A stretch of DNA of 4,516 bases, taken from NCBI RefSeq assembly GCF_003334255.1, contig NZ_QOWU01000108.1; one strand, written 5' to 3'. Made by a program: the position numbers and the translations under genes. Source of the stretch: Escherichia coli. GTDB lineage: Bacteria > Pseudomonadota > Gammaproteobacteria > Enterobacterales > Enterobacteriaceae. Positions 1-4,033 of this stretch are shown here, one piece after another (the stretch's first letter is position 1; every line of letters begins with the position of its first letter). Below the pieces are notes generated by a model that was not told the DNA's origin, did not search any database, and saw only the letters and a program-made list of their open reading frames with translations.

Positions 1-117
1 CTGGCGGCAGTAGCGCGGTGGTCCCACCTGACCCCATGCCGAACTCAGAAGTGAAACGCCGTAGCGCCGATGGTAGTGTGGGGTCTCCCCATGCGAGAGT
101 AGGGAACTGCCAGGCAT
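1..117 (+). rRNA. rrfB: 5S ribosomal RNA, 3' 117 nt (5'-truncated by about 3 nt at the window edge)
   Basis: Sequence from ctggcggcagtagcgcggtggtcccacctgacc to gggaactgccaggcat matches the E. coli 5S rRNA as I recall it, minus the leading tgc. It is followed immediately by the rrnB T1/T2 terminators, which is the basis for calling the rrnB copy. Confidence 0.93.
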
Positions 118-126
118 CAAATAAAA

Positions 127-164
127 CGAAAGGCTCAGTCGAAAGACTGGGCCTTTCGTTTTAT
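127..164 (+). terminator. rrnB T1 intrinsic terminator
   Basis: Hairpin with arms aaaggctcagtc (129-140) and gactgggccttt (145-156), GAAA tetraloop, one G-U wobble, then cgttttat U-tract. Matches the rrnB T1 sequence widely reused in expression vectors. Confidence 0.9.
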
Positions 165-199
165 CTGTTGTTTGTCGGTGAACGCTCTCCTGAGTAGGA

Positions 200-238
200 C
201 AAATCCGCCGGGAGCGGATTTGAACGTTGCGAAGCAAC
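200..238 (+). other. Two stable hairpins in the T1-T2 spacer
   Basis: 9-bp stem caaatccgc (200-208) / gcggatttg (214-222) with 5-nt loop; 5-bp stem gttgc (226-230) / gcaac (234-238) with gaa loop. Neither is followed by a U-tract. Confidence 0.6.
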
Positions 239-240
239 GG

Positions 241-285
241 CCCGGAGGGTGGCGGGCAGGACGCCCGCCATAAACTGCCAGGCAT
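241..285 (+). repeat. Degenerate partial copy of the 5S rRNA 3' end between T1 and T2
   Basis: GC stem ggcgggc (251-257) / gcccgcc (263-269) followed by taaactgccaggcat, which parallels the 5S terminal helix and 3' end gggaactgccaggcat. The 18-nt string aactgccaggcatcaaat occurs at both 105-122 and 273-290. Confidence 0.6.
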
Positions 286-295
286 CAAATTAAGC

Positions 296-330
296 AGAAG
301 GCCATCCTGACGGATGGCCTTTTTGCGTTT
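296..330 (+). terminator. rrnB T2 intrinsic terminator
   Basis: Hairpin aaggccatcc (298-307) / ggatggcctt (312-321) with 4-nt loop, followed by a T-run and gcgttt. Matches the rrnB T2 sequence as I recall it. Confidence 0.88.
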
Positions 331-1446: not shown

Positions 1447-2408
1447 AGGATAACACCGTGCCACTGAAATTGATTGCCCTGTTAGCGAACGGTGAATTTC
1501 ACTCTGGCGAGCAGTTGGGTGAAACGCTGGGAATGAGCCGGGCGGCTATTAATAAACACATTCAGACACTGCGTGACTGGGGCGTTGATGTCTTTACCGT
1601 TCCGGGTAAAGGATACAGCCTGCCTGAGCCTATCCAGTTACTTAATGCTAAACAGATATTGGGTCAGCTGGATGGCGGTAGTGTAGCCGTGCTGCCAGTG
1701 ATTGACTCCACGAATCAGTACCTTCTTGATCGTATCGGAGAGCTTAAATCGGGCGATGCTTGCATTGCAGAATACCAGCAGGCTGGCCGTGGTCGCCGGG
1801 GTCGGAAATGGTTTTCGCCTTTTGGCGCAAACTTATATTTGTCGATGTTCTGGCGTCTGGAACAAGGCCCGGCGGCGGCGATTGGTTTAAGTCTGGTTAT
1901 CGGTATCGTGATGGCGGAAGTATTACGCAAGCTGGGTGCAGATAAAGTTCGTGTTAAATGGCCTAATGACCTCTATCTGCAGGATCGCAAGCTGGCAGGC
2001 ATTCTTGTGGAGCTGACTGGCAAAACTGGCGATGCGGCGCAAATAGTCATTGGAGCCGGGATCAACATGGCAATGCGCCGTGTTGAAGAGAGTGTCGTTA
2101 ATCAGGGGTGGATCACGCTGCAGGAAGCGGGGATCAATCTCGATCGTAATACGTTGGCGGCCATGCTAATACGTGAATTACGTGCTGCGTTGGAACTCTT
2201 CGAACAAGAAGGATTGGCACCTTATCTGTCGCGCTGGGAAAAGCTGGATAATTTTATTAATCGCCCAGTGAAACTTATCATTGGTGATAAAGAAATATTT
2301 GGCATTTCACGCGGAATAGACAAACAGGGGGCTTTATTACTTGAGCAGGATGGAATAATAAAACCCTGGATGGGCGGTGAAATATCCCTGCGTAGTGCAG
2401 AAAAATAA
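1443..2408 (+). CDS. birA: Bifunctional biotin-[acetyl-CoA-carboxylase] ligase and biotin operon repressor
   Basis: 321-aa ORF beginning [47 protein letters not shown] (N-terminal winged HTH). Contains the biotin-binding glycine-rich loop GRGRRGRKW (aa 115-123, nt 1785-1811). Length matches E. coli BirA. GGAG Shine-Dalgarno at 1431-1434; start overlaps the murB stop. Confidence 0.95.
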
Positions 2409-2433
2409 GAAAGGGGAGTATTCGCTCCCCTGC
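2409..2433. terminator. Putative bidirectional intrinsic terminator between convergent birA and coaA
   Basis: 7-bp stem aggggag (2412-2418) / ctcccct (2425-2431) with 6-nt loop tattcg. On the minus strand it is followed by ttcttattttt (complement of 2401-2411), a good U-tract for coaA. On the plus strand the downstream tract (caaattatttg) is weaker. Confidence 0.6.
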
Positions 2434-2436
2434 AAA

Positions 2437-3387
2437 TTATTTGCGTAGTCTGACCTCTTCTACCGCATGATTAGCACTTTTCGTCAGGATTAAACTGGCG
2501 CGCTCACGAGTAGGTAGAATATTTTGCTTTAAGTTCAGCCAGTTGATCTCTTTCCACAATGTCATGGCAGTCTTAATCGCTTCTTCTTTAGTTAATTTCG
2601 CGTAGTTATGAAAATAGGAATCCGGGTCGGTAAAAGCCCCTTCGCGGAATTTCAGAAAACGGTTGATATACCATGTCTGAAGTAAGTCTTCCGGTGCATC
2701 AACATATATCGAAAAATCGACAAAATCAGAAACAAATACATGATGTGGATCGTGTGGATAATCCATCCCGCTCTGTAAGACATTTAACCCTTCAAGAATT
2801 AAAATATCAGGCTGAACAACCGTTTTATCTCCATCCGGGATCACATCATAAATAAGATGTGAGTAAACAGGTGCTGTAACGTTTGGCACGCCGGATTTGA
2901 GATCGGAAACAAACTTCACCAGGCGATGCATATCATACGATTCCGGGAAGCCTTTCTTCTTCATCAGACCACGTTCTTTCAGAACCTGATTAGGGTGAAG
3001 GAAGCCATCTGTAGTGATCAGTTCAACACGACGATGTTCCGGCCAACGGCTTAATAGCGCCTGCAATACACGGGCGGTTGTACTTTTCCCCACCGCGACA
3101 CTGCCAGCAATACTGATAATGTAAGGAATGCGTTGCCCGTTGGTACCAAGAAACTGTTCCAGAACTGCCTGACGGCGCAGATTCGAGCTTATATAGAAGT
3201 TCAGCAAACGTGACAAAGGTAAATAGATCTCGGCAACTTCTTCTAACGAGAGATCTTCATTAATACCTTTGAGACGGGCGATCTCATCTTCCGATAACGT
3301 CATAGGTACGGAATCACGCAGAGCTGCCCACTGGTTGCGGTCAAACTGTAGGTAAGGCGTCATTAACGTTTGCTCTTTTATACTCAT
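2437..3387 (-). CDS. coaA: Pantothenate kinase (type I, CoA biosynthesis)
   Basis: Minus-strand ORF whose product from [20 protein letters not shown] to AVEEVRLRK is recognised as E. coli CoaA (316 aa). Walker A/P-loop GSVAVGKST at aa 95-103 (nt 3079-3105). The ORF track extends the frame to 3543 (368 aa), but I place the start at the ATG at 3385-3387 (MSIKEQ); the extension is only a stop-free in-frame leader. Confidence 0.9.
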
Positions 3388-3639
3388 AAGCATGTTTCTG
3401 GCGGTCATAGCTCTATCGGCAAAGCGATATTTGCCATGGCGCGTCACAGTTCTGTTGAATGGGTTAATGGGCAGGAGGGTAACACCAGATGGGGAGGAAT
3501 AATAAGAAAAAATCTCTGCCAGGAAGCTATCGTTGAAAAGCAATGTGACAGATATTCCATCTGATAAAAAGAATTATGGTTTAGCAGGAGCGCATTGTTG
3601 AGCACAATGATGTTGAAAAAGTGTGCTAATCTGCCCTCC

Positions 3640-3705
3640 GTTCGGCTGTTTCTTCATCGTGTCGCATAAAATGTGACCAATAAAACAAATTATGCAATTT
3701 TTTAG
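3640..3705 (+). promoter_or_regulatory. AT-rich upstream activating region (UP element / likely Fis-binding region) of the tRNA-tufB promoter
   Basis: Strongly A+T-rich tract (cataaaatgtgaccaataaaacaaattatgcaatttttt) directly upstream of the -35. Stable-RNA promoters, including the thrU(tufB) operon promoter, are known to be Fis-activated through upstream sites. Individual sites were not resolved by eye. Confidence 0.45.
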
Positions 3706-3742
3706 TTGCATGAACTCGCATGTCTCCATAGAATGCGCGCTA
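3706..3742 (+). promoter_or_regulatory. Sigma70 promoter of the thrU-tyrU-glyT-thrT-tufB operon
   Basis: -35 TTGCAT (3706-3711), 17-bp spacer, -10 TAGAAT (3729-3734), then GC-rich discriminator gcgcgc (3735-3740), which is typical of stringently controlled stable-RNA promoters. The predicted start is about 7-8 nt before the first tRNA. Confidence 0.8.
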
Positions 3743-3748
3743 CTTGAT

Positions 3749-3917: not shown

Positions 3918-4033
3918 ATTTCGGCCACGCGATGGCGTAGCCCGAGACGATAAGTTCGCTTACCGGCTCGAATAAAGAGAGCTTCTCTCGATATTCAGTG
4001 CAGAATGAAAATCAGGTAGCCGAGTTCCAGGAT

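Follow-up and report, generated by a model that had tools for sequence, protein, structure and literature searches.

A hairpin between the convergent genes birA and coaA as a probable bidirectional intrinsic terminator, decayed on its birA side in Escherichia coli

The convergent birA and coaA genes of Escherichia coli probably share a compact bidirectional intrinsic terminator, a hairpin at 2412–2431 that is canonical in the coaA direction and decayed in the birA direction, with Rho backing both. The element is of an ordinary, already mapped kind; a literature search returned no paper treating a birA–coaA terminator specifically. The window, that is, the whole stretch of 4,516 nucleotides that was analysed, is the K-12 segment rrnB–murB–birA–coaA–thrU…tufB, with birA and coaA facing each other, as identified from the sequence, its list of open reading frames (ORFs) and the RefSeq annotation of the identical K-12 sequence, and the gene ends given in that annotation are those read from the sequence itself. 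Window positions are used below (Table 1) and are converted to MG1655 coordinates by adding 4171639, a value fixed by the birA coordinates.

Table 1. Positions of the genes, the hairpin, its tails and the mapped RNA features in the window
Feature	Position	Strand	Details and source
birA CDS, 321 aa	1443–2408	+	ORF list, RefSeq K-12; MG1655 4173082–4174047
Downstream termination zone, antisense to birA	2153–2321	−	Second 3′ end 2321; Rho peak 2153
U-tract of the coaA terminator, UUUCUUAUUUUU	2401–2412	−	6 T in first 8 nt; T score 4.04
coaA mRNA 3′ end	2405–2407	−	Term-seq 4174046; TRS 4174044 and 4174045
Intergenic gap between the two stop codons, 28 bp	2409–2436		Sequence
Hairpin common to birA and coaA	2412–2431		Arms 2412–2418 and 2425–2431, loop 2419–2424, GC core 2413–2430
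Degenerate birA-side tail, UGCAAAUUAUUU	2431–2442	+	3 T in first 8 nt; T score 1.10
birA mRNA 3′ end, 6 nt beyond the GC core	2436	+	TRS on RNAtag-seq, signal 0.63; no Adams Term-seq entry
coaA CDS, 316 aa, type I pantothenate kinase, convergent with birA	2437–3387	−	ORF list, RefSeq K-12; MG1655 4174076–4175026
Downstream termination zone, antisense to coaA	2610–2655	+	Rho peak 2610; second 3′ end 2655
p19-captured, RNase III-cut dsRNA within coaA	3127–3148		AAUGCGUUGCCCGUUGGUACCA from the PMC7373196 supplement, mapped onto the window

The hairpin, its two tails and their conservation

The birA start codon overlaps the murB stop (ATGA at 1443–1446), and the gene ends on TAA at 2406–2408, facing the coaA stop at 2437–2439, which reads TTA on the + strand and TAA on the − strand. 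Between them lie the hairpin arms AGGGGAG and CTCCCCT and the loop TATTCG. A first-pass annotation of this DNA had placed both stop codons, the 28-bp gap and the 7-bp-stem hairpin at these same positions, and the sequence and ORF list show all of them to be correct. In the + strand RNA an additional U2419–G2424 wobble brings the stem to 8 pairs and shortens the loop to 4 nt; the − strand stem, in the coaA direction, has 7 pairs, 5–6 of them G–C. The 28-nt gap folds at −14.3 kcal/mol (+) and −12.3 kcal/mol (−), with z-scores of −3.6 and −3.3 and with 0–1 of 200 shuffles folding equally well, and the GC-rich stem-loop of an intrinsic terminator is present in the coaA and birA directions alike.

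The tails were counted from the GC core, since stems extended through A–T pairs consume the tracts, and a weighted T score was computed over the 15 nt after the core. This score was 4.04 on the coaA side versus 1.10 on the birA side, and rrnB T1 and T2, which also lie in the window, scored 3.97 and 4.05. A scan for consensus terminators called only the − strand at this site, with the tail TTCTTATTTT, which together with the T scores confirms the earlier claim that a U-tract is evident for coaA only. The birA-side tail of K-12, UGCAAAUU, holds 3 U in 8 nt and fails as a U-rich tract, and its distal UUAUUU is the coaA stop codon together with the last coaA Lys codon; the coaA U-tract in turn overlaps the birA stop codon and the final birA codons. 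Of the symmetric layout, with an A-tract 5′ and a T-tract 3′ of the stem, K-12 keeps the A-tract side alone.

Counted over the whole window, terminator-like sites were not above chance (5 sites versus 4.4 ± 1.7 in shuffles), and it is conservation at the same place in related species, rather than the scan count, that marks the hairpin as a non-chance feature. We compared 67 Enterobacteriaceae species that possess the birA–coaA pair, 61 of them outside Escherichia. The gap measures 23–65 bp, mostly 23–37, a GC-rich hairpin lies between both stop codons in 66 of the 67 species, and in 67 of 68 sequences the native hairpin outdid 99% or more of its shuffles. Stem pairs were tabulated by 3′-arm column on each sequence's own hairpin, so that pairing is 100% by construction and variation in pair type alone is informative; a MAFFT alignment of the hairpins was not used for counting, its 5′ arms being out of register because loop lengths differ. 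These tables revealed compensatory double changes at 5 of the 6 core stem pairs, one pair being A–T in 57 species and G–C in 9. An origin as a REP or other repeat element, or as a known RNA family, was ruled out: Rfam gave no match at 2400–2440 at the gathering threshold, and each E. coli genome has a single copy of the 71-nt region.

Both tails carry at least 5 T in 8 nt in 52 of the 61 non-Escherichia species, which argues for a symmetric bidirectional intrinsic terminator, and the birA-side U-rich tract by itself is present in 56. Outside Escherichia the 8-nt tails average 6.18 T on the birA side and 6.00 T on the coaA side, against 2–5 T on the birA side in Escherichia. The comparison thus indicates that the element was symmetric in its ancestral form, with the weak birA-side tail apparently a derived Escherichia state. 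Among 5426 E. coli genomes the birA-side alleles TGC, TGA and TTT were counted 3019, 1279 and 383 times; the TGC or TGA variant occurs in 79% of the genomes and leaves the birA-side T-tract largely gone, and other E. coli lineages carry UUUAAAUUAUUU as the birA-side tail. The scan, the tails across species and the T scores together uphold the view, already taken in the first-pass annotation, that one hairpin serves both genes.

Mapped RNA 3′ ends, Rho-sensitive regions and antisense RNA

Every published 3′-end list that covers the locus places the coaA end at 2405–2407, inside the U-tract: the Term-seq position is found in two condition lists (Adams 2021), and the TRS termini 4174044 and 4174045 have signals of 0.60 and 0.85 (Bar 2023). 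For birA, the TRS data give a primary terminus at 4174070–4174080, with a dominant position at 4174075, a signal of 0.63 and a 29-nt 3′ UTR (Bar 2023), called from RNAtag-seq read starts at very low coverage (about 0.19 read starts per nt for birA); the Adams 2021 Term-seq tables contain no + strand entry at 2436. Both ends lie 6–8 nt beyond the GC core and both are of moderate strength (R = 0.60 for coaA and 0.63 for birA, where strong terminators exceed 0.9). The two positions imply that the mature mRNAs overlap by about 30 complementary nt, and the locus combines features of a bidirectional terminator, namely one hairpin, a short convergent gap and 3′ ends that overlap across the hairpin.

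RNA is also found beyond these ends on both strands. On the + strand, antisense to coaA, a further terminus lies at 4174294 (window 2655; signal 0.57; Bar 2023) and a Rho-sensitive region peaks at 4174249 (window 2610; score 3.58, p = 1.3e-7; Adams 2021, supplementary file 2), coverage in 800-nt windows going from 75 to 36 across 2610 without bicyclomycin and from 82 to 141 with it. On the − strand, antisense to birA, the corresponding terminus is 4173960 (window 2321; signal 0.64; Bar 2023) and the Rho region 4173792 (window 2153; score 4.11, p = 1.2e-8; Adams 2021, supplementary file 2), with coverage going from 115 to 19 without the drug and from 203 to 138 with it. These Rho scores are taken from 800-nt windows, and the hairpin site itself is below their resolution. 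The − strand RNA within birA at 2153–2321 is C-rich and G-poor, and the GC skew of the + strand over 2430–2710 lies between −0.14 and +0.21, with no clear C-richness.

Deep within coaA, sense and antisense RNA coexist at 3127–3148, where 800 dsRNA reads fall on the + strand and 92 on the − strand (PMC7373196 supplement). The antisense RNA at this point could be birA readthrough or the product of an internal promoter; with bicyclomycin, + strand coverage is higher downstream than upstream (141 versus 82), so that antisense RNA may partly start at a promoter inside coaA. A sigma-70 scan returned two weak + strand matches there (2717–2744 and 2777–2805, 9/12), which were set aside because such matches are no commoner in the window than expected by chance, and the Cappable-seq supplements searched hold no entries at 41740xx–41745xx.

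These data bear on the earlier suggestion that birA transcripts terminate inefficiently and run antisense into an already poorly expressed coaA. Weak expression of coaA is confirmed (0.36–0.54 read starts per nt, where tufB has about 20), and antisense RNA over coaA is real, as seen in the 2655 end, the 2610 Rho region and the dsRNA. Inefficient termination as a trait of birA fares less well, however: birA has a called 3′ end whose signal is close to that of coaA in the same dataset, and the coaA direction leaks too, as indicated by the 2321 end and the 2153 Rho region within birA.

Proposed mechanism and alternatives

In the arrangement that we consider likely, each gene's stop codon would sit within the U-tract of the opposite gene. 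In the coaA direction, the GC stem followed by UUUCUUAUUUUU would set the coaA mRNA 3′ end. In the birA direction, the decayed ancestral U-tract of Escherichia (UGCAAAUU in K-12) would leave a weak terminator or pause, and the stem-loop would define and protect the birA mRNA 3′ end at 2436. Polymerases passing the hairpin in this direction would be halted by Rho within about 200–250 nt, antisense to coaA, and leakage in the coaA direction would be backed up by Rho inside birA. We infer that the birA end is split between intrinsic termination and Rho termination with exonuclease trimming. Terminating ribosomes, at stop codons 3–5 nt from the stem, would presumably weaken the hairpin both ways, as the ribosome represses a terminator that follows a stop codon by a few bp, and full efficiency is reached only beyond about 30 bp (Li et al. 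2016); weakly translated genes may be exempt from this step.

The 2436 end might instead be the product of trimming only, with Rho terminating all birA transcripts at about 2600–2660 and 3′–5′ exonucleases stopping at the protective hairpin. This possibility, to which we give some weight while doubting it, draws on the birA-side tail, which is not U-rich, on the Rho region at 2610 with the second end at 2655, and on the likeness of this pattern to that of the Rho-dependent genes of Dar and Sorek 2018. However, one proximal U and the distal UUAUUU are still present in K-12, and the Rho effect is modest (score 3.58), with downstream RNA that is not C-rich. The tail UUUAAAUUAUUU of other E. coli lineages and the full U-tract in most genera also speak against trimming alone and make some intrinsic activity in the birA direction plausible.

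We regard it as unlikely that the hairpin terminates coaA only, with birA and murB–birA transcripts mostly reading through and a putative convergent or antisense transcription measurably lowering coaA expression. The weak birA-side tail, the lack of a + strand 3′ end in the Adams Term-seq data and the + strand RNA over coaA (coverage of 36 versus 75 without drug, the 2655 end and the dsRNA at 3127–3148) are what one would expect of such an arrangement, but the + strand end at 2436 is called at the same strength as the coaA end, Rho cuts off the antisense RNA within about 200 nt, leakage on the − strand is equal, and transcription of both genes appears so rare that polymerase collisions should be infrequent.

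Collision-driven termination, in which polymerases from the two genes pause at the hairpin and run into each other head-on, those trailing behind then dislodging them, seems improbable here. The layout would suit it (one hairpin in a short gap between convergent genes, and 3′ ends that overlap), and a pausing role of the hairpin is part of the published SEnd-seq model; the same authors find, however, that termination is less efficient in weakly expressed pairs and that it requires trailing polymerases, birA and coaA are weakly expressed, and the canonical intrinsic terminator on the coaA side has no need of collision. That the hairpin is a chance palindrome or repeat remnant without a role in transcript ends has a negligible probability: although terminator-like matches in the window are no commoner than in shuffles, its conserved location in 66 of 67 species, the compensatory stem changes, the T-rich flanks, the 3′ ends on both strands directly after the hairpin and the lack of an Rfam match there all weigh against it.

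If the bidirectional terminator with Rho backing is correct, birA–coaA offers a clean conserved case of one terminator for two convergent genes with stop codons embedded in the opposite U-tracts, and of one-sided terminator decay in which Rho and the surviving stem-loop still confine both transcripts. Beyond correct annotation its importance is probably small, and no new mechanism is suggested. The natural alleles (TGC, TGA and TTT), together with an IS4-disrupted strain, would be handy material on the contribution of the proximal U-tract in vivo. It is highly improbable, in our estimate, that loss of the birA-side U-tract is functional, such that antisense RNA and dsRNA with coaA mRNA adjust CoA synthesis at its rate-limiting enzyme, in step with growth rate or with expression of the biotin ligase, and Rho determines the gain; were it so, murB–birA would be the antisense source, perhaps with added leakage from the very active upstream rrnB, and the natural alleles would differ in coaA expression.

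Comparison with known systems

The tonB/P14 region of E. coli, reportedly described by Postle and Good in 1985, is said to be a classical bidirectional Rho-independent terminator between convergent genes. The birA–coaA element resembles this class in its GC-rich hairpin, its short convergent gap and its flanking A-tract and T-tract, the layout that 52 of 61 non-Escherichia relatives show, and departs from it in K-12 and in 79% of E. coli genomes, where the element is asymmetric and the birA-side T-tract largely lost. Rho, in work ascribed to Peters and colleagues from 2012, reportedly suppresses antisense and readthrough transcription. The bicyclomycin-sensitive antisense regions within about 200–250 nt past each gene end are like those of Rho antisense suppression (Adams et al. 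2021), with nothing distinctive about them; they are 2 of roughly a thousand such regions in that dataset.

Overlapping bidirectional terminators have also been described by SEnd-seq and explained by a model of colliding polymerases (Ju, Li and Liu 2019; Wang et al. 2022, preprint). The birA–coaA locus is similar in being a convergent pair with a boundary hairpin and complementary overlapping 3′ ends; the SEnd-seq elements, however, are described as unlike intrinsic terminators and best in highly expressed pairs, whereas birA–coaA has one canonical side and weak expression. Finally, Dar and Sorek 2018 reported that the 3′ ends of Rho-terminated transcripts lie directly behind stable stem-loops without U-tracts, and that rut sites follow shortly beyond. 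The birA side matches these stem-loops in its lack of a U-rich tail, its 3′ end a few nt beyond the stem and its Rho-sensitive region downstream, but unlike them the birA–coaA loop serves the opposite gene as a true intrinsic terminator, and it appears to have descended from a two-way intrinsic terminator.

The birA-coaA junction and its surroundings

Around the birA-coaA hairpin, 501 bases match E. coli K-12 MG1655 at 100% identity, and this stretch was found in 5421 of the 5426 complete genomes of E. coli. The K-12 record gives the gene order as 5S rRNA (rrnB), murB and birA, with coaA on the opposite strand, then tRNA-Thr, -Tyr, -Gly and -Thr, and tuf; separate checks confirmed the annotation of the tRNAs and 5S rRNA in the window. 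Published gene coordinates (birA 4173082-4174047, coaA 4174076-4175026) set the offset, window position + 4171639 giving the MG1655 coordinate. The first-pass annotation had placed both stop codons, the gap and the hairpin correctly (Table). It had also described one hairpin common to both genes with a U-tract on the coaA side only, and this is borne out: a consensus terminator scan calls the hairpin on the - strand only, and the T score, a weighted T content of the 15 nt past the GC core, reaches 4.04 towards coaA (- strand transcript) versus 1.10 towards birA (+ strand transcript). The former equals the scores of both rrnB terminators (3.97 and 4.05), used as in-window calibrators. The gap RNA folds at -14.3 kcal/mol (+ strand) and -12.3 kcal/mol (- strand), with 0-1 of 200 shuffles as stable, and both stop codons lie 3-5 nt from the stem.

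Features of the birA-coaA junction and other terminators (L-numbers denote individual genome loci)
Feature	Window position	MG1655	Strand	Evidence or signal
birA stop (TAA)	2406-2408		+	sequence and ORF list
coaA stop	2437-2439		-	sequence and ORF list
28-bp gap	between birA and coaA stops			sequence
Hairpin arms AGGGGAG; CTCCCCT	2412-2418; 2425-2431			sequence
rrnB T1	core 127-158			published 3' end at 161
rrnB T2	core 300-319			published 3' end at 326, signal 0.945
3' end (Bar 2023)	2405	4174044	-	signal 0.60
3' end (Bar 2023)	2436	4174075	+	signal 0.63
3' end (Bar 2023)	2321	4173960	-	signal 0.64
3' end (Bar 2023)	2655	4174294	+	signal 0.57
Rho region antisense to coaA	2610	4174249	+	score 3.58, p 1.3e-7
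Rho region antisense to birA	2153	4173792	-	score 4.11, p 1.2e-8
coaA/ABC-ATPase terminator in L035, L048, L051, L056, L059, L061, L063, L064, L065, L070, L078, L080	downstream of coaA

The end of rrnB fills window 1-330, with 5S rRNA at 1-115 (Rfam 82.6 bits) ahead of its two terminators. The sole - strand gene is coaA, lying amid co-oriented units of which some are very highly transcribed (rrnB, murB-birA, the thrU-tufB operon); according to Brandis et al. 2019, murB-birA-coaA is an insertion between the rrnB and tufB operons, which were ancestrally adjacent. The murB stop and birA start overlap as ATGA (1443-1446), which suggests co-transcription and translational coupling, so that what reads through the hairpin on the + strand would be murB-birA RNA and perhaps also leakage from rrnB; continuing across coaA, such readthrough would enter the thrU-tufB operon. 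In the divergent coaA-thrU spacer (3388-3748), a genomic SELEX study (PMC8743547) placed an NtrC binding peak at ~4173336 (older coordinates). The longest ORF containing coaA begins at a TTG at 3543 (368 aa), the annotated start being the ATG at 3387, followed in frame by another ATG eight codons on. Finally, a short terminator-like hairpin (- strand, 3989-3977) lies in the 116-nt tRNA-Tyr/tRNA-Gly spacer (3918-4033), which in E. coli is the location of the small tpr gene.

Symmetry of the terminator across Enterobacteriaceae

A CoaA scan with one genome per species yielded 80 Enterobacteriaceae loci, in 67 of which birA is convergent with coaA across a gap of 23-65 bp (mostly 23-37). A perfect GC-core hairpin lies between the stops in 66 of these 67 species and a bulged version in the remaining one, the commonest stem being GGGAGC/GCTCCC or GGGGAGC/GCTCCCC; in 67 of the 68 sequences, at most 1% of shuffles did as well as the hairpin. 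Stem changes are compensated: 57 species have A-T at one pair where 9 have G-C, and double changes occur at five of the six core pairs. In the genus Entomohabitans, an unrelated hairpin occupies the same location. Outside Escherichia (61 species), T accounts for a mean of 6.18 of the 8 nt next to the core towards birA and 6.00 towards coaA, and both tails have at least 5 T in 52 species. The species comparison places the stop codons within the tracts, their median distance to the core being 6 nt on either side. These T-rich tails on both strands indicate, at the level of sequence, that the ancestral element was a bidirectional intrinsic terminator, built symmetrically as A-tract/hairpin/T-tract. 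Towards coaA, the six Escherichia species retain 6 T; towards birA, they have only 2-5 (3 in K-12). Comparison with their symmetric relatives marks the U-tract asymmetry as real and as derived in Escherichia: a terminator that was ancestrally symmetric has decayed in this lineage, a point that the first-pass annotation had missed.

A natural control is provided by 13 species (Enterobacter, Leclercia, Lelliottia, Silvania and others) in which coaA is convergent not with birA but with an ABC-transporter ATPase gene, of the dipeptide/oligopeptide type. This gap holds a different, likewise symmetric terminator, AAAAAAACCGGCGATAATCGCCGGTTTTTTT, whose form A7-CCGGCGAT..ATCGCCGG-T7 is perfectly symmetric and common to both genes. 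At the Tenebrionibacter locus (L042), no obvious terminator was seen within the first 110 nt downstream of coaA.

Within E. coli, the three bases past the stem are polymorphic, exact 42-mers of each allele being present in 3019 (TGC), 1279 (TGA) and 383 (TTT) of 5426 genomes. The loop and inner pair (2419, 2423) also vary: K-12 has GAG-T-ATT-C-GCTC with a closing U-G wobble, O145 and O157 strains, like other Escherichia species, read GAGC-ATTA-GCTC and so form a C-G pair, and strain SF-468 combines a C/A mismatch at this position with the TTT tail. In the complete genome of E. coli RMDEC465 (L085), IS4 lies inside the 3' arm after GCTC (locus 100-160, equivalent to window ~2427), parting birA from coaA; this strain is a viable natural mutant whose terminator is destroyed.

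RNA 3' ends, Rho and antisense transcription

Published Term-seq lists (Adams et al. 2021, PMC7815308) report a primary coaA 3' end at 4174046 (-; window 2407) under two conditions and show none on the + strand close to the birA stop. Four ends come from a single RNAtag-seq dataset (Bar et al. 2023, PMC10687069; Table), in which signal is peak read starts/(peak + downstream read starts), 1 meaning no readthrough, and strong terminators score 0.9-1.0; a further sheet lists 4174045 (-) at 0.85, and the 3' UTR table names 4174075 and 4174044 as the primary termini of birA and coaA. By these calls, both mRNAs end 6-8 nt past the GC core, and thus overlap by ~30 complementary nt.

Bicyclomycin-sensitive regions (Adams et al. 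2021, supplementary file 2; 800-nt windows) lie beyond both gene ends. Coverage from upstream to downstream changes from 75 to 36 without and from 82 to 141 with the drug on the + strand, and from 115 to 19 and from 203 to 138, respectively, on the - strand. Thus, some transcription gets past the hairpin both ways and is halted by Rho before it has gone more than a few hundred nucleotides. Within birA, the - strand RNA is C-rich and G-poor, as expected of a Rho loading region; + strand RNA within coaA is roughly neutral in C/G composition. A p19 pull-down study (PMC7373196) captured RNase III-cut dsRNA (800 reads +, 92 -) that maps inside coaA at 3127-3148, and antisense RNA is therefore present deep in the gene. 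Since + strand coverage with bicyclomycin is higher downstream than upstream, part of this RNA may begin inside coaA instead of at birA.

The earlier proposal, that birA terminates inefficiently and runs antisense into coaA, is thus partly supported: + strand RNA does pass the hairpin and occurs in coaA, but birA appears to have a 3' end set by the hairpin, leakage occurs in the coaA direction too, and Rho limits both leaks. Any interference with coaA expression is, in our view, unlikely to be large. Elsewhere in the window, murB carries the best promoter-like match (- strand, 961-934, TTGGCA-16-TACAAT, 10/12), p19-captured dsRNA (938-959) and an internal + strand 3' end (4172639, window 1000; Adams et al.), which together hint at an antisense transcript.

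A proposed mechanism and its known counterparts

In the coaA direction, the element most likely acts as a canonical intrinsic terminator; in the birA direction, E. coli has kept the stem-loop intact but not the proximal U-tract. In the work of Li et al. 2016, the terminating ribosome almost fully repressed a terminator placed a few bp after a stop codon, and full efficiency was reached only beyond ~30 bp; the closeness of both stop codons to the stem would probably make both directions leaky. Low expression probably adds to this both ways, as SEnd-seq data show that low-expression convergent pairs terminate less efficiently; birA and coaA are very weakly expressed, at 0.19 and 0.36-0.54 read starts per nt, against ~20 for tufB. 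The polymerase-collision model of the SEnd-seq group fits the convergent architecture, but needs dense polymerase traffic, which these genes do not have. We think that the birA end arises in two ways, partly by weak intrinsic termination and partly by termination through Rho with later trimming.

It is already established that convergent genes can share bidirectional terminators, that stem-loops protect Rho-dependent transcripts and that Rho silences antisense readthrough, and the 3' ends at this locus are in published tables; our literature search found no paper specifically on birA-coaA, and the comparative picture and allele frequencies are small additions. Dar and Sorek 2018 described how transcripts terminated by Rho are trimmed as far as a protective structure, and the birA side resembles their pattern: a stable stem-loop without a U-tract, a steady-state end a few nucleotides on, and Rho sensitivity just downstream.
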